64,000 nucleotides of DNA, from positions 32,001 through 96,000 of the IMG/VR virus record IMGVR_UViG_3300043185_000099. One strand, written 5' to 3'. The stretch's first letter is position 1, and each line of letters starts with the position of its first letter. Both the position numbers and the translations under genes were made by a program. The stretch comes from a virus. The notes beneath the pieces were generated by a model. The model was given only the letters and a program-made list of their open reading frames with translations. It searched no databases and had not been told where the DNA came from. Shown here piece by piece: positions 31 through 15,020 of this stretch.

Positions 31-1053
31 TCACGGTTTCCTCCCGACGACCACAGGCTCCCAGGCTGGCTTAAGCGCGGTCCCGTACCCCTGCCACGTC
101 TTCGCGAGATCGGAGGAGGGCGCGGTGATGCGACGTGTGCCGTTCCATCGCTCGCCCGTCTTCTGGTAGCCCCAGTCTCCATCCTCAGTAGCAACGAGAT
201 CGGCCTTCCCTCCGTCCGCGCGGGACCGCATCGCGCGCGACGGGATAGCCGAGGCAATGTAGTCGTCGTGGACGGAGTCGAGGTGCAGCACCTCCTTGAG
301 ACGGACCCATTCCTCGGGCGTCGGCAGATAGATCTCCTCAGCTCTCTTTCCTCCCCGGCCCTCCACCCACGAGTAACGAGTCGTCCCGCCGAACACCAGG
401 CGATCCACCTCGACCCTGGACAGCCCGAGAGCCTCTCTCCGCTCGCGGAGGTACGCCTGGATCTCGCGTTCCCTCGCACGGTCTGTTCCTCGCAGCTTGT
501 CGACAGCCTTTGCCACGTTCGTCGACTTGGGAAATCCCGTCGAGTACGTCCAGGCTCGGATATCCACGTCAACAAACCCCACGCCTCGCATCGCTTTCAC
601 GAGCCGATGATAGGTTCTGGTCCCCCCGAACGCTCGAAGCATGCCGTCCGGCTTCAGCAGACGGTAGCACTCCGCCAGCCATCGTCTGTGCCACTTATCC
701 ATCTCCCGGAGGTGGTTGTTCTTGATTTCGTCGGGATCAACGGCCCGACCCCGGACGTGCCACCGCGGGTTCTCGCAAATGCATTTCCGTCGGCCGCGGC
801 GACGCCCCCCACAGACGGAACACGACGGATTCGCCCCTCCGAATCCAGAGGCCATCCCAAAAGACACCCACTCGGTCTTGCGGGCCCCGATACCAGGCCG
901 ACTCATCCCGGCCCCGGTCACCCACAACGTGTCCCACTCCGCGCCCATGAATTCTAAGCCGTAGGGGGGATCGCACACGACGGCGTCGATGGACTCGGGA
1001 GCAAATTGTCCGAGCCGCTCGACACAGTCTCCGTGCCACAATTCGATCTTCAC
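31..1053 (-). CDS. Catalytic (N-terminal) module of a split beta-class N6A/N4C DNA methyltransferase, with Cys-cluster and HTH-like insertions; no SAM-binding motif
   Basis: LWHGDC...VVCDPPY (motif IV), RLLKPDG..RAFGGTRTYHR, WTYSTGFPKS; ends GYGTALKPAWEPVVVGRKP-stop. No DPFxGSGT motif in the ORF. Confidence 0.85.
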   Translation of the reverse strand: MKIELWHGDCVERLGQFAPESIDAVVCDPPYGLEFMGAEWDTLWVTGAGMSRPGIGARKTEWVSFGMASGFGGANPSCSVCGGRRRGRRKCICENPRWHVRGRAVDPDEIKNNHLREMDKWHRRWLAECYRLLKPDGMLRAFGGTRTYHRLVKAMRGVGFVDVDIRAWTYSTGFPKSTNVAKAVDKLRGTDRAREREIQAYLRERREALGLSRVEVDRLVFGGTTRYSWVEGRGGKRAEEIYLPTPEEWVRLKEVLHLDSVHDDYIASAIPSRAMRSRADGGKADLVATEDGDWGYQKTGERWNGTRRITAPSSDLAKTWQGYGTALKPAWEPVVVGRKP

Positions 1054-1661
1054 GACATTCCTTTCACGTCAAGGACCTTTTCGCGGAGACGGACGAGCGC
1101 TTGGACCCCCTTCAGCTCGCCCCACGACTCCTTGCTCACGCCGTAGTCCACGCGATCAAATGTCTCCCAGAATGCGAGGATCGTACGCGCGTCCGGCTCC
1201 CGATCATGGGTGAGCCCCCTGAGCAGTCGATCGGTCCGGCGACGTTCGTCCTCGTAGGAGACCGACCGCGCGACATCAATCTCATCGTGGACATCCGCTG
1301 GACGATCCTCGGCATCGACCCATGGAAGCGCCCCAAGCCCGAGGCGCTGTTCGAGGTGCTCGACTGCCTCCCGGAAACCGACGCCCTCCTTCTCCATGAC
1401 ATAGGCAATCGGATCCCGGCTCTTGCGGCAGACCCAGCACCATGTCGAGTTCGTCGAAGGGTAGTAGCGCGCAGATGGTTTCCGGTCGACGCCGTGGAGA
1501 TCGCACGAGAACTGCTGCTCACGGTGCGGGTCAGAGACGACAGCGTACCCGTACGAGCGAAGCAGGTCGCCAAGGTTGCACGTATGGTTGACTCGATCTG
1601 CACGCGCCCTCAGTCGCTTGATGGCCTTGAGCCGCGCTGCCTCGTCGTCCACCGTACTCAC
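1050..1661 (-). CDS. Stand-alone CHC2 zinc-finger (DNA primase zinc-binding domain) protein
   Basis: FSCDLHGVDRKPS...WCWVCRKSRDPIAYVMEKEGVGFREAVEHL matches the DnaG CHC2 zinc-binding pattern; no TOPRIM domain. GTG at 1661 chosen because it overlaps the upstream stop (GTGA); ORF track starts at 1721. Confidence 0.8.
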   Translation of the reverse strand: MSTVDDEAARLKAIKRLRARADRVNHTCNLGDLLRSYGYAVVSDPHREQQFSCDLHGVDRKPSARYYPSTNSTWCWVCRKSRDPIAYVMEKEGVGFREAVEHLEQRLGLGALPWVDAEDRPADVHDEIDVARSVSYEDERRRTDRLLRGLTHDREPDARTILAFWETFDRVDYGVSKESWGELKGVQALVRLREKVLDVKGMS

Positions 1662-2308
1662 CGGTCGAACGCCTTTCGCAACCGCAGATTCAGAATCAGC
1701 CGAGTCTCCTCGCGGTGCCAACCCGGATACGTCACCGGAGATACCGACGACGATCTACGGCAGGTGATCGGGCAGATGCTGCGCTCCATGAGGAGCGAGG
1801 CTCCCGCATCCGTGAGGCTTAGCACGCGATCGCCATCTCTGTCGCGCGCGTTCCACACGCCATCGTCATCGCGCTCAATGCTGCGGATGAGAGACCGAGG
1901 GGCCTCGACGTCTAGGAGCGCAGGATCGCAGAACACCGCCCACGAGTACCACGTGTATCCGTGGAGTTGGTCTTCCCTTCCTCCCGGAATCGCGAAGCGT
2001 ACCTGTCGCTTGAGCGAGGCGCGTGCGGTGCCCCCCAGGTCGTCGTCGATTCTCTCGAGGAGACGCATCAGGTACCTCGCTCGAGCCTGATCGTGCGTGG
2101 TGACGAGGAACGGAAACTTGTGGTTGTGTCCGCTGTGAGCTTGGTGGAAGTCCAGGCACAGCTCGGACATCAGCTGTACGTCCGGGTCACGTAGCCGTCG
2201 CGAGTCATCGGCGTCGGCGAGGCGGTCTTTGAACACGAGTGACGTGACGTGCAGGGCGAGACCCCCGCGCGCGCGGAAGCCACGGGTCCCCGTGTCTGAA
2301 CCGGACAT
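1658..2308 (-). CDS. Hypothetical protein
   Basis: 216-aa ORF with protein-like composition that tiles into the minus-strand operon. Confidence 0.6.
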   Translation of the reverse strand: MSGSDTGTRGFRARGGLALHVTSLVFKDRLADADDSRRLRDPDVQLMSELCLDFHQAHSGHNHKFPFLVTTHDQARARYLMRLLERIDDDLGGTARASLKRQVRFAIPGGREDQLHGYTWYSWAVFCDPALLDVEAPRSLIRSIERDDDGVWNARDRDGDRVLSLTDAGASLLMERSICPITCRRSSSVSPVTYPGWHREETRLILNLRLRKAFDR

Positions 2309-2340
2309 CCGACGTTGTACGCCTCAGGATAGACGGAGTC

Positions 2341-2802
2341 TCACCCGAGGATCCGGAGACGCACGCGGTCCGGGCCGACACCGCGTTCGGCGGCAATCTC
2401 TGCCCCGCGCTCCACGAACTCCTGCGGTCCCTCGATGCTCACGGTGCCGTCATGGTGCTTGACGTAGAGCCCTTGGCCGCTCCGTCGCAGATCGCGCATG
2501 AGGTGTGCTCCCTTGTCCTTCTGGAGAGCCCGGGGGGCAAGCTCCCTCACGACCACGGTCTCGCCGAGGTTCGTGTGCTGGACATCCAGCAGGACATCGC
2601 TGCGATCGGGACGATGGCGATCCACACCGAATCCGAGGAGCCATAGACAGGAGAATCCCCTGCACGCGGTCGGCCGCCCCTCGTAGATCGAGCACCCCTC
2701 GCGCGAGGCGTGTCGGCACCGTTCGCCAGCCGGCTTGTCGATCTCCTCCACACGCAGCACCGTGCAGCACACGGTGCAGCGTCCGCACGTCCTGGTGCTC
2801 AT
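2341..2802 (-). CDS. YkgJ-like cysteine-cluster (CxxCxxCC) Zn/Fe-chelating protein
   Basis: MSTRTCGRCTVCC...RCRH....CSIYEGRPTACRGFSCLWL; ATG at 2802 overlaps the upstream stop (ATGA). Confidence 0.8.
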   Translation of the reverse strand: MSTRTCGRCTVCCTVLRVEEIDKPAGERCRHASREGCSIYEGRPTACRGFSCLWLLGFGVDRHRPDRSDVLLDVQHTNLGETVVVRELAPRALQKDKGAHLMRDLRRSGQGLYVKHHDGTVSIEGPQEFVERGAEIAAERGVGPDRVRLRILG

Positions 2803-3065
2803 GACTCGGGCTCCAGGACGGCCACGATCCACTCCTGCCGAACGATGACCTCGACGCCGTCTTCCTGGCGCACGGAGAACTCCACGACCGTCGGGTGCGT
2901 CGGGTGATCGCCCCGCACGCGGATGACCACGCCCTCGACGACCCTCCTCGTCGCGGCCACCTTCATCTGCGCACCGGCCAGTGAGGCGCGAGGGATCGGC
3001 TCGAACCACTCGGCCCTGACACGCGTCCCCTTGGTCACGTAGACCTCGGTGCGATTCTCCGTCAC
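2799..3065 (-). CDS. Hypothetical protein (small, beta-rich)
   Basis: 88-aa ORF with 4-nt overlaps at both ends (ligA stop and YkgJ-like start). Confidence 0.65.
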   Translation of the reverse strand: MTENRTEVYVTKGTRVRAEWFEPIPRASLAGAQMKVAATRRVVEGVVIRVRGDHPTHPTVVEFSVRQEDGVEVIVRQEWIVAVLEPES

Positions 3066-5002
3066 AGCATGGCCTCCACGTCGGCGACGCCGATCACCTG
3101 GACGCCGTAGTCGCGCGCCTTCTTAGCCTTGCCGCTCGCCGATGTCGGGTCCTTCGCTACGAGATACGTGAGATCCTTGCCCACGCTCGTCTTGATAGCC
3201 CCTCCGGCGTCCTTGATCCGATCCTCCATTCCCTTGTCGCGGATCCCGGTGAAGCAGAACGACTTGCCCGACAGCTTCCCCTTCACGGGGCCCTTGACGG
3301 AGACGCCGGCCGCCAGCAGGTCCTCGACCAGCTTGCGGCAGCCGCGGAAACCGTCGACGAACGCTCCCGCCTTGGTCTCGCCCAGTCCGGGGATCGCGGC
3401 GAGGGCGGCGAGCGACGCCTTCCCCATCTTCTCCAGCGTGTCGAACCCGGCGTCGACGATCATCTGGCACACCGTCTGGCCGCAGAGGTCGATCCCGAGC
3501 GCGCCCACGAAGTCTGCGATGCGAAGCGTTTTCTTGGCGGAGAGGTTCTCCAGCATGCGCTCGGCCGTGCTGGTGCCGATCCTCTTCCCCGAGAGCTGGA
3601 AGTCTTCCAGATCGGTCACCGTGAGTCGGTAGATGTCGGCGAGGGAACGGACCTTGCCCGAGGCACAGAGCGCCTCGATCGCCGTGTCGCCCCACTCCTT
3701 CACGTCGAGTTTCTTGACCCACCGCTTGACGGCGCCGCTCTGCTGCGCCGGGCACCGCGCCCCGTCGTCGCAGACGAGGAACTCCCCCTTCTTGGACAGG
3801 GGCTTGCCGCACGACGGACAGTCGCGAGGGATCGCGAACCTCCCGTTCTGCGACGGCCGCAGCACCTGCTCCACGTATGGGATCACGTCGTTCCGACGCG
3901 AGACGAGCACGGTGTCGCTCATGCCGAGCAGGTTCTGCGGGCACTTCTCGGCGAGGCGGCGGATGTTGGACTCGTTGTGGAGGCTCGCCTGCGAGACGGA
4001 CGCACCCGCGAGGTTCACCGCGTCGAAGTACGCCACCGGAGTCACCCGGCCGCTCGCTCCTACCTGCCACACGATCTCGCGCAGCTTGGTGGGCTGCTTC
4101 TCGTGGGGGAACTTGAACGCCCGTGCGCCCTTGGGCCGCCCGTCGTGCTCGCCGAGGTGCTCCATGGCGGACAGGTCGTCGAGTTCGACGACGAGTCCGT
4201 CGATTTCGTAGTCCAGACCCTCCCGCGTCTTGGAGACATACTCCCTGTAGACGGAGAGGACATCGTCGACCGTAGACGCTGTGCTCCAATTGGGAGTTAT
4301 ACAGCCGAGCTTCTCCAGGAGCTTCAGCTCGACGGACTTGCGCACGATCCCGTGCGCGTCCGTGATCACTTGGTAGCAGATGACCGTGAGGTGCTTGCAC
4401 GGAGCCGGGTCCGACTCTCGCTTGGCGATGCCCGAAGCTGCGTTGCGTGGGTTCTTGTACTCGGGGACGTGCTTCCGATGATCGCTCCGCAGAAGAACGA
4501 TCTCACCGCGCACGAACCCGGTGAAGTCGCGCATCTTCCTCTGGACGCCCTTCATCAGCAGGACGTTGCGCGTGATGTCCTCGCCCATCTCTCCGTCTCC
4601 CCGCGTGAGAGCCTGGACGAGCTGCCCGTTCTCGTAACGGAGGCTGATGGAGATCCCATCGAGCTTCTCTGAGATCACGATGCCTGGATCAGCCGAGCCG
4701 ACATCCCCGGAAACGTGGGCCGCCCGAATCTTGGCGCTTACGTCGGTGTGCCACTCGGCGAGTTCCTGCTCGACCTGGACCTTGAGGAGACTGCCCATGG
4801 GCGCCCCGTGGCGTACCTTGGACCACCCGGACTTGGGCTTCGCGCCGACAGCCTTGAAGTAGGCGTTCTCGGGGTCCAGGTCTCGTAGTTGGTCCTCCAG
4901 CGCGTCAAACTCCGCATCCGACATGATGGGGGAGTCCCCGTAGTAGGCGTCCCTGGCCTGCTGGAGCTGCTCGACGAGGTCCTGGACTTCGCGTGTACTC
5001 AT
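3062..5002 (-). CDS. ligA: NAD-dependent DNA ligase
   Basis: YY..SPIMSDAEFD domain Ia, EKLDG adenylation motif, VRGE, NPRNAASG, YEIDGLVV, WQVGASGRVTPVA OB fold, CPSC..C..C zinc finger, HhH repeats, C-terminal BRCT (FCFTG...GKAKKA). GGGAGG SD upstream. Confidence 0.97.
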   Translation of the reverse strand: MSTREVQDLVEQLQQARDAYYGDSPIMSDAEFDALEDQLRDLDPENAYFKAVGAKPKSGWSKVRHGAPMGSLLKVQVEQELAEWHTDVSAKIRAAHVSGDVGSADPGIVISEKLDGISISLRYENGQLVQALTRGDGEMGEDITRNVLLMKGVQRKMRDFTGFVRGEIVLLRSDHRKHVPEYKNPRNAASGIAKRESDPAPCKHLTVICYQVITDAHGIVRKSVELKLLEKLGCITPNWSTASTVDDVLSVYREYVSKTREGLDYEIDGLVVELDDLSAMEHLGEHDGRPKGARAFKFPHEKQPTKLREIVWQVGASGRVTPVAYFDAVNLAGASVSQASLHNESNIRRLAEKCPQNLLGMSDTVLVSRRNDVIPYVEQVLRPSQNGRFAIPRDCPSCGKPLSKKGEFLVCDDGARCPAQQSGAVKRWVKKLDVKEWGDTAIEALCASGKVRSLADIYRLTVTDLEDFQLSGKRIGTSTAERMLENLSAKKTLRIADFVGALGIDLCGQTVCQMIVDAGFDTLEKMGKASLAALAAIPGLGETKAGAFVDGFRGCRKLVEDLLAAGVSVKGPVKGKLSGKSFCFTGIRDKGMEDRIKDAGGAIKTSVGKDLTYLVAKDPTSASGKAKKARDYGVQVIGVADVEAML

Positions 5003-5104
5003 CTGGCCTCCCGTACGGCCCGGTCCCCGCTTTTACACGCCGCGGCCGCCCAACGAGGCCCGCGCACTATGCGCGTCACCAGGACCTCGCGAAAACCAGT
5101 ATCT

Positions 5105-5113
5105 CCTCTATAG
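5105..5113 (+). promoter_or_regulatory. Candidate phage late-promoter motif CCTCTATAG
   Basis: Identical 9-mer on the minus strand at 48107-48115 and a near copy (GCTCTATAA) at 28805-28813. All three are intergenic and oriented toward structural-type genes. Confidence 0.4.
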
Positions 5114-5125
5114 CCCACCACCAGG

Positions 5126-5707
5126 GTGTCCCTGTCTCTCCGAGAAGGAGCGCTGTCGCAAGACGTCGAGGTGCTCCTCCACGGGGATCGGCTCGTGGTC
5201 GCGGCGGGCCCGGTGCTGCGCCAGACCCGATGGTCGGGTGGTCTCTGGGTCCTGTTCGTCACGCCGACGGGCGTGAGCGACTGGATCGTCGAGAGATCGA
5301 ACGGCGTACAGGCGACCGGATTCCTGCTGTTCGGCTCGGAGAACTACGCGAACTCGGCTGGCGACGCCGGCTACCGCAACTTCACGAGCATCCAGCCGGC
5401 CAACCCGCAGGCCACGACGTTCGCGATGGGCGCCAACACGCTCCCGATGGTCACGGGCGGAGGTCGGTTCCTCTTCCGCGTGTTCGAGACGGTGGCGCTG
5501 ACGCCGGCGGGCGTGCGCGCCGGCGGTCCCGCCGTCTACAACCTCAACGACATCCTCAAGGTCAGCGAGAACGGTCTCCTGTGCAACGATCCCGACGCCA
5601 ACCTGCTGGCCGCTACGGGTGGCACGGAGACTATCAAGGTGGGGACATGCTCGGCCATTCCCGATGACCGCAGTGGCAACAGGCTCGGCCTCGACTTCAA
5701 GTTCTGA
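5126..5707 (+). CDS. Hypothetical protein, probable virion (head decoration/cement-like) protein
   Basis: 193-aa Gly/Ala/Thr/Asn-rich ORF with strong GC3 codon bias, divergent from ligA and preceded by the CCTCTATAG motif. The structural role is inferred from composition only. Confidence 0.65.
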   Translation: MSLSLREGALSQDVEVLLHGDRLVVAAGPVLRQTRWSGGLWVLFVTPTGVSDWIVERSNGVQATGFLLFGSENYANSAGDAGYRNFTSIQPANPQATTFAMGANTLPMVTGGGRFLFRVFETVALTPAGVRAGGPAVYNLNDILKVSENGLLCNDPDANLLAATGGTETIKVGTCSAIPDDRSGNRLGLDFKF

Positions 5708-6332
5708 CCTGCTTGAAGAATCTCGATCCCCCTCCCTGATCGCCGTACCAGATCTGCGGCGTGTCGGCTGGACGGCTCTCTGCACCGAAGGTCGCGCTTC
5801 TGTTTCCGTCTCGCCCTCGCCCCGTCCGTCGCTTGATCGTGCCGCTTCCACTCGCGAGCAGACCACTCTGCGCGTCGATGTCATCGACGGGGCATCCGCG
5901 TTCGCACGTCCACGACGCAATAGTCTCGAGCCCGTCCGTTTCCGCGTACCCGTGGTCTGGCGTCCCTGGAGGCACCTTGCCCCAGCCGGTGACGCCCTCC
6001 GATCTCACGCCGTGGCGCTTGACGGCGACGCCTGTCTTGACTCTGCGAGTCCCGCTCTGTCGACATCCTGCAAGGTGCTGCAGGATCACGTTCGCCGGCC
6101 ACCGTCCTCCGGCCGTCTCGGGACCGTGAAATGTCTCTCCTGACGTCGATCTGCCTTCGTTTCGATGACCGAGACAGAGACCGTCTGGTCCTCGTCGCGT
6201 GCAGTGGGTCCCACCACCGTCGGATCCGATCCGGCTCCTGGTAATATCCAGCGCACCTGTGCCCCAGGTCGACACGTTGTCCGTGATGCTCTGTTGAGCC
6301 AGCGGCTTGCGCGAGATGGTGACGACTCTCAT
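5697..6332 (-). CDS. Stand-alone methyltransferase middle (target-recognition-region) module 3
   Basis: MRVVTISRKPL...NVSTWGTGALDITRSRIG...GRWPANVILQH...WTCERGCPV...YGDQGGGSRFFKQVRT-stop; ATG at 6332 overlaps the upstream stop (ATGA). Confidence 0.8.
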   Translation of the reverse strand: MRVVTISRKPLAQQSITDNVSTWGTGALDITRSRIGSDGGGTHCTRRGPDGLCLGHRNEGRSTSGETFHGPETAGGRWPANVILQHLAGCRQSGTRRVKTGVAVKRHGVRSEGVTGWGKVPPGTPDHGYAETDGLETIASWTCERGCPVDDIDAQSGLLASGSGTIKRRTGRGRDGNRSATFGAESRPADTPQIWYGDQGGGSRFFKQVRT

Positions 6333-6883
6333 GGACGTACCTGCTTGAAGAATCTCGCCGCCGCCGTGCCGCTGTCTCCGTAGTCCTCGGGTGGAACAAA
6401 CACTCGATGACGCGGGAGCACTGGCGCTTTCCCCCGGTCGACCTTGAACGGTTGCTGTCCAGGTCGTGCTCGACGGGACACTCCCGTTCCGGTACCGCCC
6501 GATTCGCTCTGTCGGTCCAGGATCCCGACGGGACACACCGGACCGCACTCGCCGTCGCACGCCTTGACATGCTGGAGGATCACGTTCGCCGGCCACCGAC
6601 CAAGCTGCTCGGACGGGCGCTCTGCCATGTAAACATCCGCGCTTCCACGACGCCCGAGTTTACCAAGAAGCTCGGTCTCGGACGCTCGGCTAGAGCCATA
6701 GATCCGCTCGGCCATGGGCGCCTTGTCAGACTTGCGAGCCGAGGCTCGCCGTGCAGCAGCGGGAGATCCTCCAGGAGACGATATCCGACAGGGATCCACG
6801 GCGAGGCCACCAGACCCCCAGCGCTGGATGTTCGCCGCGATGGGTCCCTCAGGTGGTTTACGCGCTACGGTGATCACCCTCAA
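6329..6883 (-). CDS. Stand-alone methyltransferase middle (target-recognition-region) module 2
   Basis: MRVITVARKPPEG..AANIQRWGSGGLAVDPCRI...GRWPANVILQH...CGPVCPV...YGDSGTAAARFFKQVRP-stop; TTG start overlaps the upstream stop, GGAGGAG SD. Confidence 0.8.
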   Translation of the reverse strand: MRVITVARKPPEGPIAANIQRWGSGGLAVDPCRISSPGGSPAAARRASARKSDKAPMAERIYGSSRASETELLGKLGRRGSADVYMAERPSEQLGRWPANVILQHVKACDGECGPVCPVGILDRQSESGGTGTGVSRRARPGQQPFKVDRGKAPVLPRHRVFVPPEDYGDSGTAAARFFKQVRP

Positions 6884-8418
6884 TCTTCGACTCCTCCGAT
6901 GTCGAGGCCGAAGATACCACCCTCCTGCTCAGCCTCGTTCTCCATGGGTGGAACTTCGCTCTCGATCCTGGGGGACAGGTCACCCGGGGTTTCTGCCGCC
7001 TTCCATCGCACGCGTTGTTCTGCAATCTGTGCGTACTCGACGTCCTGCTCGATGCCCACGAAGTTGAGTCCGTGCCCCTTCTTCCGACGTTTCGATTCGG
7101 CCATGCAAGCGAGCCCTGTCGTACCGGACCCCATGAATGGATCGCAGACCAGCGCACCATCCGAGACGTCTCTCAGAAGAGCTTCCATGACGGCAACCGG
7201 CTTCACTGTGGGGTGGTCCGACTGCACGATGCGCTTTTTCTCGACCGTACGCGTGTCGAACCGCTCGCGCATTTCATCAGGAACGTCGTCGACTGCCAGG
7301 CCGTCCTCGACCATCCTCTCCAAGATGTCTTTGTCCACATTCTCGGAGAGTTCTTCGCGCAGATCCTCGACACTCTCGTCCTCGCGCGGGAACAACCGCT
7401 CCGAGCGGATGACCTTTTCCCTCGGTACGACGCCAGCGTTGCGTTCCGTAGTGCTAGCCTTCGCGACGTAGTGGAACTCTCCAGGCGTGTCGAGGACGGC
7501 GATGGCGTCCCTGATCTCGTACCCGAAGTCCTCGACGGCACACGCCCCCGTCGTCCCGGTCGGGTCGTCCTCGTCCGAGATCAGGAGCAGGTGTGCTCCC
7601 GGACGCAGCACCCTGTCGATCTCCTTCATCCACGGGCTGGGATCGCCGACGGTCACGATGCCGTGCACGGACTTGTCGGCGAGGGCCGCGAAGTCGACGC
7701 TGGCCAAGTCGGCCTCGGCGATGATCACTGGCTCGCAGCTCGGGGGCGGGCTGATCATCGTGACGAGGTAGTCCCAGAGTTCCTGCGGGATGCCGTCCTT
7801 CATGTCTGCTCTCCTGGTCTGTTTGAAGAAGCGCGAGGCTCCGCCTCCATCGGCGTAGACGCGCGTGCCCGGATCGTTGAGGGCCACGTCGCCCTGTGGG
7901 TCTCCGTAGACGACACCCCTCTTCCGCGTCGCGGTCGCCGGATGCGGGTGAGGCCCGCGAGGATCGGCCCTCCCCGTGAGGGTCGAGGGTCGATCCCCGG
8001 ACTGGCGGTCGAGCGCCATCACGGCACATCCGTCCTGGCAGACCCACTTGACGACCCTCTCGTCCGGCAGTCGCTCGCTCTCGTACGCGACCCCCGCCGC
8101 GTCCCCGAACGGATGGGCCCCTCCCACGTGCCTGTTGATGACGTAGCCCGGCACCATGGTCGTGCCGTCGGGCCTGCAGCCCGTCTCGTGGACGAGCACG
8201 GTGTTGGCCGGCCAGCGACCCGACGCGCTCGACATCTGGCCGCTGCGGCGATGGGTCGCGCGACCTCCCACATGCCTGAAGTCCGGCTGCGGCACGGACG
8301 GAGGCACGCCCGCGATGCGGCACCCGTCCACGTCGATGGCGCCCGCGGCCCACCGCAGAGCGTTCGACGTCGCGCTGCCCTCCGAGCACACCTTGCGGGA
8401 GAGCGTCACCACTCTCAC
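6880..8418 (-). CDS. Methyltransferase middle module 1 fused to a SAM-binding C-terminal module (possible internal start at 7803)
   Basis: VRVVTLSRKV...GAIDVDGCRI...GRWPANTVLVH...ASRFFKQ, then a degenerate catalytic-like region, then FHYVAKASTTER...DHPTVKP (motif X), VCDPFMGSGTTG (motif I), FVGIEQDVEY (motif II). GTG at 8418 overlaps the upstream stop; AGGAG SD before ATG 7803. Confidence 0.85.
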   Translation of the reverse strand: MRVVTLSRKVCSEGSATSNALRWAAGAIDVDGCRIAGVPPSVPQPDFRHVGGRATHRRSGQMSSASGRWPANTVLVHETGCRPDGTTMVPGYVINRHVGGAHPFGDAAGVAYESERLPDERVVKWVCQDGCAVMALDRQSGDRPSTLTGRADPRGPHPHPATATRKRGVVYGDPQGDVALNDPGTRVYADGGGASRFFKQTRRADMKDGIPQELWDYLVTMISPPPSCEPVIIAEADLASVDFAALADKSVHGIVTVGDPSPWMKEIDRVLRPGAHLLLISDEDDPTGTTGACAVEDFGYEIRDAIAVLDTPGEFHYVAKASTTERNAGVVPREKVIRSERLFPREDESVEDLREELSENVDKDILERMVEDGLAVDDVPDEMRERFDTRTVEKKRIVQSDHPTVKPVAVMEALLRDVSDGALVCDPFMGSGTTGLACMAESKRRKKGHGLNFVGIEQDVEYAQIAEQRVRWKAAETPGDLSPRIESEVPPMENEAEQEGGIFGLDIGGVED

Positions 8419-10157
8419 TCCGGTCTTCTCGCGACGACGATGGGCTCCCAGGCCGGCTTCAGAGCGGTGCCGTACCCATCCCACAGCTTGGCCTCCTCGG
8501 TCGCCGGGACCGTCACCGGGACCTGGACCGGAATCTGACGGATGCCTGTCCCGTAGGCGCCGAGAGATCCGCCCGGACTCGTGTGGATGCGCGGGTCTTT
8601 GCCGGCAAGAACGTCGTTGAGATTTTCTCCGCCGACGCCGCGAGAGTAGCCGACTACTTGTCTCTCGGCCTTGGCTCTCCTGTCGATCTGCTTGGAGATG
8701 TTGGTCGATTTCGGGAAGCCACTGTTCCCGGTGACGAAGACGCGACCGTTGTGGCGAGCGAGGAAGGCTCCGGTCGGCACCCGGACACACCACACGTCGC
8801 CCGTGTAGTGTTCCCGAACGGGATCCTTGAGGTGTCGTCGTACGAGCTGTGTCTGCGGGTTCTCATGCAGAGAGACGGTCGCCTTGCGCGGATTGTCGCG
8901 CGCCTGCCACCCGATGACGTGTGCGAGCGTCTGGAACCACTCGCGATCCGCATCGTCCTTCTGATAGAAAGCCTTGGCGGCCGGGGTTCCGTCACCGCGG
9001 AGAGCCGCGTGGAGGAATGCCTCCTTCTCCTCCAGCGACATCCTCCAGAGCAGATCATACGTTGGGTGCTTGTCTGGCAGGTCCTCGCGCACTCGGGCGG
9101 CCATTTCCCCAGTGAAGAACCACATGTGCTCGTCGTACGGCAGCCCCCGGTAGAGGCGCGGACGAACGTAGTGCTTGCGATACGGCACCAGATCCCCCAC
9201 GAGAGCATGGATCTCCTCGACGAACTCGCGGCCCGATCCGTCGACCCTCGTACTCTGGCAGATCCTGACTCCGGTGCCGTGCTCGTCGAATCCACCCTCC
9301 GTCCATACCCAGGCCAGTAATTCGGCGTAGCGAAGGCCACCGTCCAGGCCTGAACCATCGTGGTAACCGGCGAGAGGGAGGTTGAGTGTGTTCCAGCGAT
9401 TGATCTCCCCGGCTTCCACCGCGTTCCAGTGATCCTCGCGAGTCGTGACGCGGACGCCGTCCCGCTGCTTCCTGATCCGCGCTCGCTTGTAGACCCGATG
9501 GTTCGGTGTGAGCATCTGGTCTGTGTTGTCGTTGACAAACCGGACCATCTCCCCGTCGTAGGGAGCGACGATCTTCTCCTGGACAGGCAAGAGCAGGACG
9601 GCCTCGGTCTCATGGTCCCAGCACGCCACCCGTTCCCTCTCGTCCACATCGATGCCGAGCTTCCAGCCGTGTTCGGTCAAGATCTCGGACGAGGCATCGA
9701 GACACCCGTAAATCCAGGAGTGCAGCTCGACGTCGACGAGACCCGCGCGCCGCATCGCCCTGACCATGCGATGGTAGGTCCGCGTGCCGCCGAACGCCTT
9801 GACGACGCCTCCCGGCCGCAGCTTGCGGAGTACGAGGTCCCAGAAGTCGGGATCGAACGCGATGCCCGTCGCGTCCCAGACCTTCCCCATGAAGCCCCCA
9901 CCTCTTCGCACTTGGTCGTGAGAGTCCAGCCGGGTCCGGCCGAAGGGTGTCCCGGGATCATTCATGCGAGGACTTCCCCCACGGCTGGCGGACGTCATGC
10001 GAGGACTTCCCCCACGGCTGGCGGACGTCAGATCGTACGGAGGATCGGTCACGACGACGTCGAGACTGTCATCTGGAAGTTCTGCCAAACGAAGCAGGCA
10101 GTCACCTTGCCAGAGTCTGATGTTGGCTGTAGATCTTGTCTTGGTGGCGGACATCAC
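8415..10157 (-). CDS. Catalytic (N-terminal) module of the split beta-class DNA methyltransferase, intein-containing
   Basis: LWQGDC...VVTDPPY, KLRPGG..KAFGGTRTYHR, SWIYG[intein]SGFPKS; ends GYGTALKPAWEPIVVARRPE-stop. No SAM-binding motif. Confidence 0.88.
   Translation of the reverse strand: MMSATKTRSTANIRLWQGDCLLRLAELPDDSLDVVVTDPPYDLTSASRGGSPRMTSASRGGSPRMNDPGTPFGRTRLDSHDQVRRGGGFMGKVWDATGIAFDPDFWDLVLRKLRPGGVVKAFGGTRTYHRMVRAMRRAGLVDVELHSWIYGCLDASSEILTEHGWKLGIDVDERERVACWDHETEAVLLLPVQEKIVAPYDGEMVRFVNDNTDQMLTPNHRVYKRARIRKQRDGVRVTTREDHWNAVEAGEINRWNTLNLPLAGYHDGSGLDGGLRYAELLAWVWTEGGFDEHGTGVRICQSTRVDGSGREFVEEIHALVGDLVPYRKHYVRPRLYRGLPYDEHMWFFTGEMAARVREDLPDKHPTYDLLWRMSLEEKEAFLHAALRGDGTPAAKAFYQKDDADREWFQTLAHVIGWQARDNPRKATVSLHENPQTQLVRRHLKDPVREHYTGDVWCVRVPTGAFLARHNGRVFVTGNSGFPKSTNISKQIDRRAKAERQVVGYSRGVGGENLNDVLAGKDPRIHTSPGGSLGAYGTGIRQIPVQVPVTVPATEEAKLWDGYGTALKPAWEPIVVARRPE
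8724..9704 (-). mobile_element. Intein (327 aa) with LAGLIDADG/DOD-type homing endonuclease domain
   Basis: Block A CLDASSEILTEHGWK, block B LTPNHRVY, endonuclease-like LLAWVWTEG and FLHAALRGDG, blocks F/G YTGDVWCVRVPTGAFLARHNGRVFVTGN followed by Ser+1. Removal restores WIYG-SGFPKS, matching WTYSTGFPKS in the paralogue at 31-1053. Confidence 0.92.
9962..10030. repeat. Perfect 33-bp tandem duplication (in frame; TSASRGGSPRM twice)
   Basis: tcatgcgaggacttcccccacggctggcggacg at 9962-9994 and 9995-10027, plus tca. Confidence 0.95.
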
Positions 10158-10938
10158 CTGCGCTCGTTGTGTGAAGTCATTCCACGTCCCTGACTATCGA
10201 GCCCGGACGGCTCAGTTCTGTTCGCGCGGCTGCATGACTCAGGCACCACTCTGCCGACTCCCCCCTCATCGTCCCCGAAAGAGGATCGTCCTGACGTGCA
10301 AGACTTGCCAGCAGACGTTTGAGAGACAGAGCGGACGCCCACGCCATGGGCGCGGCGTCTACTGCTCCCGTCGTTGTATGTATGAGGGACTCGCCGAACA
10401 CAGAGCCCCACGTCAGACGATGGTCTGTGTCGGCTGCGGAGCAATCTTCCAGATTCTTGCTTGCCAGCAACGAGACCGCAGAGGGGCAGGCACGTACTGC
10501 TCGCGAGCCTGCCGCGACGAAAATCGGCGCGGGCCGAAGCATCCTCAGTACCTCCACGGCGCAGGGGCCTACCATCGCGGACCGAATTGGCAGCGGCAGA
10601 AACGTCACGCGAAAGCGCGGGACGGCCATCGGTGCCTGCGCTGCGGAACCCGTGAACAAGATCTTCGGGCGCGTGGCAAGTTCCTCCACGTCCATCACGT
10701 CGTGCCCTATCGCCTCTGTTCCTCTTGGAAGAGTGCCAACCGCTTAGAGAACCTCCGATCCCTGTGCGAGAACTGCCATCGCGTCGAGGATGCAGAGTTC
10801 CAGGCGCTGGAACGCGATCTGATTGCTGATCTGGAGAAGATCTCGTCAAGCACATCTGTCCATGTGGCCCCTGAAGACGGCGAGACTCTCGGCACCCGTC
10901 AAGACGGTCAGCGAAGTTGTGGAGCAGGCACACCATGA
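10144..10938 (+). CDS. Free-standing HNH endonuclease with three CxxC...CSxxC zinc-ribbon repeats
   Basis: CARC..FCSRGC, CKTC..YCSRRC, CVGC..YCSRAC; ARDGHRCLRCG...LHVHHVVP...ANRLENLRSLCENCH. Start uncertain: GTG 10144 is in frame with the 9964 ORF. Confidence 0.85.
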   Translation: MADITCARCVKSFHVPDYRARTAQFCSRGCMTQAPLCRLPPHRPRKRIVLTCKTCQQTFERQSGRPRHGRGVYCSRRCMYEGLAEHRAPRQTMVCVGCGAIFQILACQQRDRRGAGTYCSRACRDENRRGPKHPQYLHGAGAYHRGPNWQRQKRHAKARDGHRCLRCGTREQDLRARGKFLHVHHVVPYRLCSSWKSANRLENLRSLCENCHRVEDAEFQALERDLIADLEKISSSTSVHVAPEDGETLGTRQDGQRSCGAGTP

Positions 10939-10973
10939 CCTGTCTACCCGCCCGAGTGCCATGTCGAAAACAT

Positions 10974-12536
10974 CTACTCGACCTCCAGGATGACGGGCCG
11001 CTGCTTCGACTCCTTGAATTTGGTCTCCTGGCCCTTCGCGTTCTTCACCTTCTCCTCGAGTGTCTCGATCGGCGTGTGATCAGTCAGGAATCGTCGGCAA
11101 GCGAATTCAATGCGAACCGGCACCCGTGCGAACGGTTTCTGGTCGCGAGATTTCAGGCACTGAAAGATTGCCTGCCCGAGCTTGGCCAGCTCCTCGTCGA
11201 TCCACGTGGCCGTCACGATGTCCGCAGATCGCTCGCATTCGTTCGCATACGACAGGGCCGTGAGGTTGTACCTTCCGCCGGCTTTCTCGGCCGCGCGCCA
11301 CCCCTCGCGGCTGATCTGGAACAGGGCGACGACGGCAATTCCCATGCCGCGGTTGAAGGACATGGCGAGCTTTTTGAGGTCGCGGATCACCTCGTTAAGC
11401 CTCTCTGTCGTGCTGCTGTAGCGACCCCTGGCGCTCATCAGCCCCGCGTGGTCCACGAAGATTGACCTGAACGGAGTCTTGCTGAAGAGCAGCTCGGCAC
11501 GGCTCCGCAGGTCCACGATCGTGAAATCGTTCTTGTCGGGGTCCGCCACCTCGATATGGATGTCCCCATACTCCGACGGATCGACCGGATACGGACCGCT
11601 CGGTGGCACGACACGGACCTTGTTGATTGATGGGACCACGAATTCACGGAGAAACTGCTCTTCATGCGGAAGCAACTTGCCATCCCTGATCTTCTCGTAG
11701 TCGAGACCAAGCGTAGGGATGCCCAGGCGTTTCCGCACATCGCGGAAGTCGTCGTGAGCACTGTGCATCGTGTAGAGCAGGTTCCGGACCTGGAGGTACG
11801 GCATCTCCAGGCTGAAGTAGACGGAGGAGCACCTGTGGTAAATGGCCTGCGTGTAGGCCCAGTGGAGGGCCCAGCTGGACTTGAGTGCGCCGGTGAATCC
11901 CGCGTGGACCCACAGCTCGTTCCGTTTGGCGCCGTTGAGCGTGACGTCGATCTGCTCGATCCCGCAGTGTTGGCCGACACCGAAGTTGGGATCGGCCTTG
12001 ACTTGGTCGTACCGCTTGAAGAAGTCCTCCGCGTCCTGCATCGCGTTGCCAGACAACTTGCCGCCCAATGTCGGGGCTACGATGTCGTGGCTCTTGTCCA
12101 AAACGTAGCGCACCGCGTCGACAGCCCCCATGAGCTTGGTGGACTTCCCCCTGGGATCCTTGATCTCGAGGCCCGAAGAGACGATCTGTGCCATCTCCTT
12201 GGCCAGGTCCATCACGATGCGGTTGCGCCGATCACGGGCCTTCTCCTCCAAGTAGGCTACGAAGTCGCCTCGCGTGCGCGCTTTGATAGCGGAGAGCCAC
12301 TCGATACGATCGACGACATCTACTTCCTGGACCCCTGAGAAGTGGCTCCGCATCGTCTGGATTGTCGGAGCGTGGCCGTGCTGCTTAAAAAAGTCCTGGA
12401 TGTATGTCCAAATGACGTTGTCCTCGACCGTGTCGAAGCCCAGACCCGAGTCCGCCATCGCGTGGTAGTTGAGCGCGATCTCGTTGCTGCTGTCGGTCGG
12501 ATCGGCGACGAAGCAGGAGCGCAGAAGATTTTTCAC
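10974..12536 (-). CDS. DnaB-like (SF4) replicative helicase
   Basis: H1 HAGFTGALKS (variant Walker A), H1a YFSLEM, H2 IFVDHAGLM, H3 VVALFQISRE, H4 ECERSADIV, Arg-finger region CLKSRD. Confidence 0.85.
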   Translation of the reverse strand: MKNLLRSCFVADPTDSSNEIALNYHAMADSGLGFDTVEDNVIWTYIQDFFKQHGHAPTIQTMRSHFSGVQEVDVVDRIEWLSAIKARTRGDFVAYLEEKARDRRNRIVMDLAKEMAQIVSSGLEIKDPRGKSTKLMGAVDAVRYVLDKSHDIVAPTLGGKLSGNAMQDAEDFFKRYDQVKADPNFGVGQHCGIEQIDVTLNGAKRNELWVHAGFTGALKSSWALHWAYTQAIYHRCSSVYFSLEMPYLQVRNLLYTMHSAHDDFRDVRKRLGIPTLGLDYEKIRDGKLLPHEEQFLREFVVPSINKVRVVPPSGPYPVDPSEYGDIHIEVADPDKNDFTIVDLRSRAELLFSKTPFRSIFVDHAGLMSARGRYSSTTERLNEVIRDLKKLAMSFNRGMGIAVVALFQISREGWRAAEKAGGRYNLTALSYANECERSADIVTATWIDEELAKLGQAIFQCLKSRDQKPFARVPVRIEFACRRFLTDHTPIETLEEKVKNAKGQETKFKESKQRPVILEVE

Positions 12537-13498
12537 CGACGTCCTCCGCGACCCCGGGGCTTCCTGGGTTTCGGGTCTTCGAGCGAGAGCGTATGCAGGA
12601 AGCTGGTGGTGTGATTGTTCGACTCATCTTCCTCGGCCAGCTCATCGATGATTCCCCCAGCGTCGTCGACGGCATCTTCTCCTTCGTCATCCGCATCGTC
12701 CGTGATGCCCTCTGCCGGTTCTTCGGCCGGCGCGGACTCACGAGGCGCGTCAAGGTCCTCCAGGGCAGCAGTGATAGCCCCGTCCTGTGCCACGACATCC
12801 ACGACAGTGGAGACACTCTTGAAGTTCTTCACCTTGTCGTTGATGATCCGTATGTGGGACCACGTGCTCAGCAGCGACTCCAGGCTCTCGCTGTAGAACC
12901 TATGGTGAACCTCGTTGATGCGGTGGTCTGGTTGATCGACGATCCACGTCGGCTTTCCCTCGTACCGCCGGAGCCCGAGAGCTTCGAGCAGTGCGTTGGG
13001 GGCCTCCTTGTTGGGAAGCTGCTTGACGCCGAGGAAGATCACGAGGAGGTCAGGTGGCGTCACGAGATCGGGCAAGTCGATGGCCTCCAAGGTGGCCCGC
13101 TCGATCTCCAGGTCGTAAATCTTGATGCCCTGAGCCTTCTGTGTGCCGAACCAGCTGTCCAGGAGCTGTGAGTCCGCGTAGACCCGACAGTCCCACATCG
13201 AGGACATGGCGTACGCGAGGGCCTTCATGTGTCGCCGGAATGTGATCTCGCTGGTTGTGATCCACAGGTTGCGGCGCAAGAACAGCTTGAGAGGCGGATC
13301 GTTGCGCAGGCCGGGGATGTCCTTGGCCTCGGACAGCGACTTCCAGATGCTCTCCATGTTCACGAGCTTCAGAGCATCCTTCGTGCAGTCGCAGTACTCG
13401 CCGCCCTTCTCGCCCGGTCGCGTGTAGATACAATCGGGGTAGATGAAGCCCGTGCCACCACACTTCGGGCATTTCGGGTCGGCGTAGTCGCGGCTCAC
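12533..13498 (-). CDS. Probable helicase loader (DnaC/DnaI-like) with N-terminal zinc finger, degenerate ATPase motifs and acidic tail
   Basis: CPKCGGTG...YCDC; PDLLVIFLGV and RRYEGKPTWIV recall the DnaC/IstB DLLxLDDLG and RYxxxKPTIIT motifs; directly upstream of and overlapping the DnaB-like gene. GTG 13498 has a GGAG SD. Confidence 0.55.
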   Translation of the reverse strand: MSRDYADPKCPKCGGTGFIYPDCIYTRPGEKGGEYCDCTKDALKLVNMESIWKSLSEAKDIPGLRNDPPLKLFLRRNLWITTSEITFRRHMKALAYAMSSMWDCRVYADSQLLDSWFGTQKAQGIKIYDLEIERATLEAIDLPDLVTPPDLLVIFLGVKQLPNKEAPNALLEALGLRRYEGKPTWIVDQPDHRINEVHHRFYSESLESLLSTWSHIRIINDKVKNFKSVSTVVDVVAQDGAITAALEDLDAPRESAPAEEPAEGITDDADDEGEDAVDDAGGIIDELAEEDESNNHTTSFLHTLSLEDPKPRKPRGRGGRR

Positions 13499-13505
13499 GG
13501 TCTGT

Positions 13506-15020
13506 CTACTCCAACGTCGGATCGGGCGGGGCGTCGTCACTAGGGTTTGCAACCGAAAGGAAGTCGAACAACCCTCCTCCGTCGTCTGCCACGTCGGCCA
13601 TCCCGAGCGGCTCCTGGTCCCTGATCCTGGCCGTAGCCAATCCGAGGTAGGTCGCGCTGGCGTCGATTCCGATGTAGTCCCGAGCCTCTCGAAGAGCCAC
13701 GAACCCTGTCGTGCCCGAGCCAGAGAACGGATCGAGCACCGTGCATGGTGTCATGTCGTGCGGAGAGCACGAGCACGTCGGTTCCCATCCGACCGTCTTG
13801 TCCGGGTGCCGCGCCTTCCATGCGTTGATCTCTTTGCCAGATAGCTTGGATGCTCTGAATCCCATGTTGCCCGCACCCACGTTGCCGGGCTGCCCGATCT
13901 CAAGACGCTTACCTGGATCGCGGTGTGCCGGCTCCGGCGCAGGCGGGCCCTTCTCCACGACCCTCCTCCACGGAGAGCCGCACGACGAGCAACACCCCAG
14001 GGATGTTCCAGCTTGGATGCAGAGGCGCGGGAGTTCGGGCGGGAACACGGCGAAGTGCGCTCCCGGGTACGGCTTGGTGTTGATGGGCCACACAGATCGC
14101 CGATTACGGCCCGGCTGGTTAGGGGCCTCCTGTGGTCTGCGTTTGCCCCCGATGGAGAGCCGCTCTGGCGTCTCCCAGTTGTTGCCCCCAGCCGCGCCCA
14201 TCCTCTCGTCGGCCCAGGGTTCCATGATCGCGACGTGGTCGTAGTAGTAGTCGTGTGGGTTCTTCGTCAGCAGGAAGATGTACTCGTGGGAGGTTGTCGG
14301 TCGATCCTTGACCGCCTCTGGCATTGGGTTTCCTTTGCTCCACACAATGTTGGACCGCACGTTCCACCCGTCCTCCTGCAGCGCGATGGCGACGCGATGC
14401 GGGATCATCACGAGATTCTTCGGGCGCAGACCCTCGGGAACACGCGACGACTGGCCCTGTGGCAGATTCTTCCACTTCGTCGGTGAGACTTGCTTCACAC
14501 GGTTGGCCGTGTAGCTATCTCCCAGGTTGAGCCACAGGGTCCCGTCGTCTCTGAGGACTCTCCACACCTCGCGGAACACCTCGATGATGTGCTCGACGTA
14601 CATCCATGGGGTTGGCTCAAGTCCGAGGTGCCCGCGCCACGCCCCGCACAGCGTACAAGACTCGGAGCGGTCGACCCTGTACTGCTCCGTCTCGCCGTGG
14701 TCATTCTCAAGACCAGGACCGAGAGTCTTCTCCGCACCCGCCGACACCAGGGTGGAGCCGAGATCTTCTCGGCCGTTGGTGCTGCCCTTGCGCACGACAG
14801 ACGCGTCCTCCCACCGGTGCGGGCACGCGGCATCGCCTCCCCACACGCTCGGCTCGGAATCGTAGGCGCGGAGGCCCCAGTACGGGGGCGACGTCACGAC
14901 GCAGTGGACCGAGGAAGACGGTAGCTCTCGCAGAGCCTCGCGACAGTCGTGGCCGTAGTAGAGATGCGCCTCGGGCGGGCGGTCTCCTGTCGGCCGACGG
15001 ACGACGACGGGCTCAGGCAC
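13506..15020 (-). CDS. Full-length beta-class DNA methyltransferase (SPPY; N4-cytosine/N6-adenine)
   Basis: VVTSPPYWGLR, RVLRDDGTLWLNLGDSY, IVWSKGNPMPE, HEYIFLLTK, HFAVFPPELP, VLDPFSGSGTTG, YIGID. AGGAGG SD before GTG 15020. Confidence 0.93.
   Translation of the reverse strand: MPEPVVVRRPTGDRPPEAHLYYGHDCREALRELPSSSVHCVVTSPPYWGLRAYDSEPSVWGGDAACPHRWEDASVVRKGSTNGREDLGSTLVSAGAEKTLGPGLENDHGETEQYRVDRSESCTLCGAWRGHLGLEPTPWMYVEHIIEVFREVWRVLRDDGTLWLNLGDSYTANRVKQVSPTKWKNLPQGQSSRVPEGLRPKNLVMIPHRVAIALQEDGWNVRSNIVWSKGNPMPEAVKDRPTTSHEYIFLLTKNPHDYYYDHVAIMEPWADERMGAAGGNNWETPERLSIGGKRRPQEAPNQPGRNRRSVWPINTKPYPGAHFAVFPPELPRLCIQAGTSLGCCSSCGSPWRRVVEKGPPAPEPAHRDPGKRLEIGQPGNVGAGNMGFRASKLSGKEINAWKARHPDKTVGWEPTCSCSPHDMTPCTVLDPFSGSGTTGFVALREARDYIGIDASATYLGLATARIRDQEPLGMADVADDGGGLFDFLSVANPSDDAPPDPTLE

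Follow-up and report, generated by a model that had tools for sequence, protein, structure and literature searches.

A 64,000-nt stretch of virus DNA (the window; bases 32001–96000 of the 151,955-bp linear IMG/VR virus record IMGVR_UViG_3300043185_000099) carries an array of genes that probably encodes a naturally split, multi-subunit beta-class amino-methyltransferase with exchangeable subunits resembling a target-recognition domain (TRD). The original prediction, made from the letters of this stretch, held that a methyltransferase usually found as one chain is cut here at two fixed points into catalytic (N), middle (M) and S-adenosylmethionine (SAM)-binding (C) modules, which could be mixed in trans. 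The cut points are indeed fixed: they recur across a large family of proteins, and related phages carry the modules in varying numbers. We consider it likely that the split enzyme is functional; that its M subunits are exchanged to give several specificities is possible, with the balance tilted somewhat against it.

All of the pieces lie on the minus strand where they had been placed, and their motifs are as described, with N modules ending in RKP or RRPE and M modules starting with MRV.T..RK and ending with RFFKQ. The catalytic half N1 (31–1053, 340 amino acids (aa)) has DPPY at aa 28–31 and GFPKS, retains all motifs and ends ...AWEPVVVGRKP*; the second catalytic half, N2 (8415–10157, 580 aa), has DPPY, ends ...AWEPIVVARRPE* and is interrupted by a putative intein, and the two share the N-terminal pattern ...GDC...D.VV.DPPY. 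The body subunit M1-C is one open reading frame (ORF) of 512 aa (6880–8418), in which the TRD-like M1 (7819–8418; GTG start at 8418, overlapping the N2 stop, GRWPAN at aa 67–72, end ...SRFFKQ) is followed by a degenerate Rossmann-like domain, N' (7474–7803), without DPPY and without the glycine-rich SAM loop, and then by the SAM half, C'' (6883–7473), with motifs X and I to III (FHYVAKAS...ERNAG, HPTVKP and DPFMGSGTT). Next come two free TRD-like subunits, M2 (6329–6883, 184 aa; TTG start at 6883, with GGAGGAG upstream) and M3 (5697–6332, 211 aa; ATG start at 6332). Exact 4-nt start/stop overlaps join N2 to M1 (GTGA), M1-C to M2 (TTGA) and M2 to M3 (ATGA), as had been claimed, and N1 is joined to both of its neighbours by the same kind of overlap. 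The beta-class order IV...TRD...X-I is kept along the gene chain N2 > M1 > C'', on separate proteins. Parts of the prediction had to be revised. No stop separates M1 from C, so that 7819 is an arbitrary end for M1 and there is no clean three-part cut here, and C is more than a SAM-binding part because the conserved N' precedes C''.

That the pieces belong to one beta-class amino-methyltransferase is borne out by the Pfam family PF01555, the profile of which is divided between N1 (profile positions 1–95, 43.2 bits) and the C part (positions 34–220, 62.2 bits; cut-off 26.7 bits). In PDB sequence searches N1 found CcrM and M.RsrI, and C found DpnA, M.BceJIV, CcrM, M.RsrI and M.MboIIA. N2 matches no Pfam family at E ≤ 0.01; it was recognised by a custom N profile over three extein stretches and by BLASTP to N1, with which it shares 34% identity across the N-terminal part and 66% across the last 32 aa. 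The single polypeptide typical of the beta-class family is broken here by a stop after ...RKP in N1 and after ...RRPE in N2, and both stops are the same in a second (Logan) assembly. Because motif IV is DPPY, N6-adenine is the likely target, with N4-cytosine also compatible with the sequence.

From a profile-free search with N1 came 13,956 relatives. The best 150 N representatives include about 80 proteins with N, M and C'' in a single chain and 37 that have N only; of the latter, nearly all those listed terminate 0–3 residues past RKP. The M2 search gave 81 homologues of 101–300 aa, most of them aligning over the entire query; the stand-alone M homologues that were inspected start with M(R/I/K)V(I/V)T.ARKP and end with RFFKQ, one of them consisting of two M in tandem, and the ESM Atlas holds many virus-only "hypothetical protein" clusters of M type. 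With C as query, 496 proteins were found at E ≤ 1e-8, the best 120 of which are mostly M-N'-C'' fusions, the remainder being stand-alone N'C''. In PHROGs, phrog_6025 is N-like and phrog_3008 is of the M + C'' type, both annotated merely as "DNA methyltransferase". The single-chain N-M-C'' relatives, including an ORF of LR745208.1 and gp76 of Mycobacterium phage Bipolar, place M between the N half and FF..AKA...H.TVKP; M therefore corresponds to the TRD position of beta-class enzymes, as originally proposed. N-M fusions lacking C'' also occur among the representatives and were considered as Rosetta-stone evidence, which was rejected, as they are mostly proteins cut at contig ends.

It is hardly credible that the array is pseudogene debris or an assembly artefact. 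One M copy beyond the window edge is frameshifted and N2 bears a recent duplication and an insertion, but identical cut points occur in hundreds of proteins from independent samples, the catalytic and SAM motifs are all intact and the genes are translationally coupled. A Logan contig covers 16 kb including every junction and the frameshifted M copy with 0 gaps and 1 substitution at about 35x; it is a second assembly, probably from the source run and not an independent sample. Since it agrees at this depth, the stops and the frameshift are present in the reads, and the stops are no assembly errors, which would have refuted the prediction. Low-depth joints in this comparison have short sides of about 20 nt and were taken for other organisms.

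N', the unforeseen component, is as conserved as the SAM half among 120 homologues (the stretch before FHYVAKAS), with the family motifs IPQEL.DYL.TLISPP, SVHG, RVLRPGAHLLLIAP and PTGHTGACA.ED.GFEIRDAI, and because of this strong conservation it is no relic. An AlphaFold2 model of M1-C has a mean predicted local distance difference test (pLDDT) score of 77, with values above 90 over most of aa 220–490. In a fold search with this model, where all Z scores are at most 8 and thus middling and the M part was barely probed, aa 204–315 (N') matched whole small class-I methyltransferase cores (TrmI, PrmA and others) weakly (Z 6–6.7, about 100 residues aligned, root-mean-square deviation (rmsd) 3.1–3.8). 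For aa 315–490 (C''), the matches are beta-class DNA methyltransferases over their C-terminal halves: M.RsrI (Z 6.1, rmsd 2.2, 88 aligned), M.BceJIV (Z 6.0, rmsd 1.6, 77 aligned, 42% identity), EcoP15I Mod (Z 6.6) and CcrM (Z 5.8). These matches are only consistent with N' being a pseudo-methyltransferase domain and C'' comprising motifs X and I to III.

A predicted complex of one pair, N1 (with an alignment of 34 N-only proteins) and M1-C (with an alignment of 48 fusions), supports assembly of N and M-C in trans. The original prediction had called for such a model, and the pair passes, with a median interface score (ipSAE) of 0.87 against 0.00 for the best of 3 controls, although the pass may come from likeness of fold. 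Of the solved complexes, 58 of 80 reach that mark, as do 2 of the 110 mismatched pairs, a calibration that is rough here since custom alignments were used. At least 73% of contacts are in common among the runs, and the partner pLDDT is at least 68. The lowest-error contacts are C'' 423–426 with N 23–27, N' 289–293 with N 149–152 and M 72 with N 327. In the first of these, the strand before DPFMGSG (LVCD, C'' 423–426) is modelled to pair with the strand before DPPY (DAVVC, N1 23–27), which would be the beta1/beta4 pairing of every class-I methyltransferase and would put DPPY beside the SAM site. N' 286–320 contacts helix 144–153 and strands 163–172 and 319–335 of N1 in the model, and M1 residues 1–6, 26–32 and 68–73 (GRWPAN) contact N1 316–331. 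Interface positions in 58 M modules have a mean top-residue frequency of 0.79 versus 0.34 elsewhere (p = 1e-10, Mann–Whitney test), and interface positions of N and C are likewise more conserved.

M1, M2 and M3 all begin with (M)RV(V/I)T..RK and finish with RFFKQ, and their pairwise identity is merely 38–40%, which marks them as old paralogues and not as recent copies. Neither M2 nor M3 is broken, and both keep every scaffold residue. M modules also have a near-invariant His and three Cys (H77, C81, C127 and C131 in M1), which may possibly form a zinc site framing the most variable loop. A fourth copy, M4 (genome 26312–26967, L019:6312–6967, minus strand), lies 5 kb before the window start, and its variable part is disrupted by a -1 frameshift close to CTGGGGC, which the Logan assembly shows too; the claim that no module has an internal stop thus holds within the window and fails for M4. 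Frameshifts also break the first M of L022 and the last M of L011–L013, in the latter near a similar GACTGGGGC; such shifts could reflect decay or be programmed.

Array contents in related phages were counted with custom N, M and C profiles. The array of L007 (528 kb) reads C, N, N, M, N, M, M, zinc-ribbon ORF, N, N, N, x, M, M, M, nearly all chained (in total 1 C, 6 N and 6 M); in L011 an M-C fusion is accompanied by 3 N and 5 further M, one of which carries a -1 frameshift in three assemblies; L009 has 1 C, 1 N and 3 M; and L021 (619 kb) has 1 N and 1 M-C. The complete genome behind L022/L023 (435,804 bp with terminal repeats, CheckV 100%) has a single N, a single C fused to an M, and 5 M copies, of which one is frameshifted, one is short and one lies 135 kb away. 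C is single in every relative that could be counted, and M is the multi-copy part. One N and one C facing several M would fit a shared core better than fixed one-to-one pairs. It could be argued instead that the window phage has one real enzyme of a single specificity, spliced N2 with M1-C, and that N1, M2, M3 and M4 are outgoing duplicates or spares with no present role: M1 is tethered to C and adjoins N2 with coupled translation, the minimal relative L021 makes do with one N and one M-C, and M copies are broken both here and in relatives. We consider this unlikely, because M2 and M3 have diverged to 38–40% identity from M1 and from each other with the scaffold intact, free M genes recur in many phages and in many virus-only Atlas clusters, the complete genome retains 5 M for 1 N and 1 C, and N1 has lost none of its motifs.

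The split enzyme with exchangeable M subunits may work as follows. M1-N'-C'' would supply the SAM-binding Rossmann half (C''), a catalytically dead N' and one tethered DNA-reading module (M1), and the catalytic half would come from a separate N protein, either N1 or, once its intein is spliced, N2. Apposition of the N strand before DPPY and the C'' strand before DPFxGSG would, according to the model, rebuild the canonical active site, with N' packing on N much like the second, eroded partner of METTL3–METTL14-type pairs and the conserved M frame (first strand, G.G.L.ID, GRWPAN and RFF) resting on the last strand of N. M2, M3 and, with frameshift readthrough, perhaps M4 would have the same docking frame and different loops, and we infer that they are alternative specificity subunits, which would occupy the M position on a free N'C''. 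The latter could possibly be made from an internal ribosome-binding site and the ATG of Met206. A candidate internal start lies where M meets C within the M1-C ORF (7801–7815, minus strand; AGGAGA, a 6-nt spacer and ATG), Met is found at this column in 35 of 48 M-C fusions, L011 has GGGAG-N6-ATG at the equivalent boundary, and C is encoded on its own in L007 and L009; these together make an internal start yielding free N'C'' plausible. In this way a single core could modify several motifs and shield the phage genome against restriction by the host. More tentatively, and rather against our expectation, the whole huge-phage clade may possess a plug-in methyltransferase, with one SAM body carrying a built-in pseudo-partner, one or a few detachable catalytic halves and a library of readers on a common socket. 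Just as conjecturally, the motifs written would then be as many as the M subunits (or N × M combinations), and some relatives would need a short ribosomal hop after DPPYG to make N. The stand-alone C of the 528-kb phage (L007:1665–3014) has a 140-aa acidic, proline-rich repeat extension (TPVE and PPEE types) before N'.

Several points weigh against the split enzyme with exchangeable M subunits. The sole C found here is fused to M1, so that exchange, and with it the 2×3×1 combinations envisaged in the original prediction, would need either the unproven internal start or displacement of M1. The complex pass covers N1 with M1-C alone and says nothing on M2 and M3; since N and C'' together make up one fold, it may also stem from their resemblance to solved single-chain enzymes, and the test of interface conservation is confounded, as the model is confident where sequences are conserved. 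AlphaFold2 gives M3 alone a mean pLDDT of 65, with the first strand below 50, too uncertain for a fold search, and the TRD assignment consequently rests on position, not fold. Decay may be under way in part of the array, given that several M copies in the clade are broken (M4, the first M in L022 and the last M in L011–L013). N2 depends on splicing by a Gly-Asn-ended intein that neither Pfam nor a PDB sequence search recognised. Lastly, the contig represents about 29% of a genome (CheckV completeness), which makes module counts for the window phage incomplete.

The putative intein and a duplication qualify the description of N2 as a plain catalytic module, which stands for its motifs and its end. 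The insert of 327 aa (8724–9704, minus strand) lies between ...WIYG and SGFPKS and carries intein hallmarks: its first residue is Cys (CLDASS...), its block B reads TPNH (TxxH), it ends ...VTGN followed by Ser, and its conserved insertion site is vacant in paralogues, namely N1 and all six N genes of L007. Alleles at the same N site are full-size in L022 and a mini form of about 140 aa in L009, each ending GN|S; the penultimate residue is Gly, not His, in all three alleles. Retention of an intein at one conserved site in three phages counts in favour of the split enzyme. The N2 insert has no Pfam match at E ≤ 1 and no PDB sequence match, and its splicing is only predicted from these hallmarks. 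Directly after motif IV (DPPY) of N2 there is an exact 33-nt tandem duplication (9962–10027, minus strand; 11 aa twice, 100% identity), at the same hot spot as the TAG gaps of relatives described below, and N2 lacks the usual GLEFMG there. N1 has a CxxC...CxC insert and a weak helix-turn-helix-like insert; the CxxC...CxC insert, placed after DPPY, is also present in several N modules of L007.

The location of some M genes raises the question of whether free M proteins act without the core, as site-masking DNA binders, as regulators or competitive inhibitors of the enzyme, or as partners of other proteins. M4 lies after the polymerase module, away from N and C, and an M gene is found at the same place in L016; the complete genome has a lone M at 166 kb, L014 has M only, and M4 is chained to an unrelated 316-aa ORF ending ...TLRRRKP. 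Action without the core is nevertheless improbable, since the conserved M parts are exactly those that contact N in the model, most M genes lie inside N/C arrays, and M alone models poorly, the first strand of M3 being disordered as expected of a piece that would need a partner. The 316-aa ORF (L019:6964–7914, minus strand) overlaps M4 by 4 nt and contains a SWIM-like motif (CxC...CxH), and its end, ...TVTLRRRKP, resembles the tail of an N module. Neither it nor the 341-aa ORF before the M of L016 matches a Pfam family, and as these ORFs share no relationship, the ...RRRKP tail may have arisen by chance.

It is also conceivable, although very improbable, that the modules are joined into one chain by recoding, with the ribosome shifting frame or hopping at the duplicated ...RKP strand, or by rearrangement of DNA between the shared boundary sequences. 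The strand at the boundary occurs twice, as ...VV.RKP at the end of N and as ..VT..RKP at the start of M, and a -1 shift near the N2 stop would enter M1; yet a match of take-off and landing codons that would restore a single strand, as in bypassing of the gene 60 type, is missing at this N/M junction, where N2 reads ...CCG GAG TGA and M1 has RKV, not RKP. Moreover, no M follows N1, and relatives often have their N and M genes apart (N N N x M M M in L007). As to rearrangement, short blocks of DNA are shared (the M2 and M3 ends have 19 identical nt, another block of 32 nt is 94% identical, and the N tails match over 72 nt at 79%), but all repeats are direct, so that recombination would delete rather than shuffle, and there is neither a recombinase gene beside the array nor a well-supported alternative join in the Logan contig.

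Recoding finds some favour in hop-like gaps elsewhere in N of relatives. In three of them the N gene is broken right after motif IV (L009:7050–7100, identical to L024; L022:13540–13600, identical to L023; and L025:2995–3035). Each gap has the layout DPPYG (GGN), TAG, 9–12 nt counting TAG, a Gly codon (GGN) and then (L/I)EFMGK. Skipping the gap and decoding a single Gly restores DPPYG(L/I)EFMG in all three, while the gaps differ and one shifts the frame. A DNA pattern of fixed spacing found no match for this arrangement, and a pattern with a variable gap matched three contigs. The arrangement resembles T4 gene 60 bypassing on a short scale, in that the take-off and landing codons both specify Gly and TAG follows the first of them at once; alternatively, the gene may encode a 43-aa peptide and a second ORF starting from a conserved Met. 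The gapped N is the sole N gene of the complete 436-kb genome.

The closest known enzymes are single-chain phage beta-class methyltransferases (Bipolar gp76, the ORF of the 485-kb uncultured phage LR745208.1 and phrog_67), which have the same motifs in the same order: DPPY, GFPKS, ...ALKP.(W/Y)EP..V.RKP, G.GALNID, GRWP.N, RFF, HPTVKP or HNTVKP, and DPF.GSGTT. They differ in being one polypeptide with one middle segment, no N' and no spare M genes; in Bipolar gp76 both boundary strands are present with about 190 low-complexity residues between them. The two-piece forms of phrog_6025 and phrog_3008 are like the array here in being cut after the N half, with M and the SAM half in the second protein. 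Type I HsdM/HsdS systems, including those with multiple hsdS genes, share the logic of a catalytic core and a separate, exchangeable specificity subunit, whereas their core is of the gamma class, HsdS has two TRDs with coiled-coil spacers, and variation arises through hsdS recombination. M is not HsdS: M2 and M3 match no Pfam family at E ≤ 0.01, including Methylase_S, they lack the two TRDs with conserved spacers, and M aligns to the middle of single-chain beta-class enzymes. Among C5 methyltransferases, M.AquI and M.EcoHK31I are natural two-polypeptide enzymes, split M.HhaI and M.SssI have been engineered, and multispecific Bacillus phage enzymes carry several TRDs in cis on one core. These likewise rebuild a fold from fragments or serve several TRDs with one core, but they are of the C5 class, consist of two pieces or of single-chain TRDs, and have no multi-copy free TRD genes. 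Methyltransferase heterodimers have also been engineered (PMC2836561). EcoP15I Mod2 and CcrM dimers divide labour, and METTL3–METTL14 and MTA1–MTA9 pair an active unit with a unit lacking motif IV (PMC7544214). N' resembles the latter in lacking DPPY and touching N in the model, with the difference that here a small domain, joined to the SAM half of the active unit, forms the dead unit, and the active unit itself is divided between two proteins. In the full-text literature searched, from which REBASE and subscription journals were out of reach, we found no description of a split system of this kind, of free M genes, of multi-copy arrays or of N', and the word "split" is absent from the beta-class review PMC7544214.

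If the split enzyme with exchangeable M subunits holds, it would be the first amino-methyltransferase outside Type I and Type IIB with free specificity subunits, a natural Rossmann methyltransferase fold rebuilt from two or three chains, and a bacterial-virus parallel to the active/eroded pairs METTL3–METTL14 and MTA1–MTA9. It would also give a function to hundreds of virus-only "hypothetical proteins" of the M family. Swapping of M, if true, would be a compact route to many specificities, a reader of 150–210 aa being cheaper than a whole enzyme; it would help to account for the ability of huge phages with a broad or changing range of hosts to evade diverse restriction systems, and would offer a natural modular scaffold for retargeting adenine methylation.

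Within the genome of this huge freshwater phage, the array sits in a replication module that runs, in minus-strand order, SNF2-type helicase > single-chain SPPY methyltransferase > DnaB-like helicase > array > NAD-ligase > DnaG-type zinc-ribbon protein > N1 > PolA, with PolA just beyond the window edge. This module (window 31–16626) is syntenic with L007, L011, L021 and L022, where the methyltransferase array follows DnaB, and the phage contigs sharing the module order and the post-DnaB array are of 257, 436, 528, 531 and 619 kb. Most of the proteins with the family's cut points are encoded within this conserved module. Only one close relative was found, P0001 (99% identical), the remaining relatives being far apart, and a search of viral contigs for related loci with M1-C as query returned one weak locus. 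The window phage has a G+C content of about 62%; a freshwater metagenome is the only sequencing run containing the stretch, and no RNA runs containing it are listed. The custom N, M and C profiles found nothing on the whole contig beyond N1, N2, M1-C, M2, M3 and M4. Two ordinary single-chain PF01555 methyltransferases are encoded on the minus strand as well, one of 509 aa with SPPY and DPFSGSGTT, possibly of the N4-cytosine type (13506–15035), and another inside a 379-aa open frame (genome 23310–23969), which brings the methyltransferase systems of the phage to at least three. In the relatives, DnaB, PolA and SNF2 often contain inteins.

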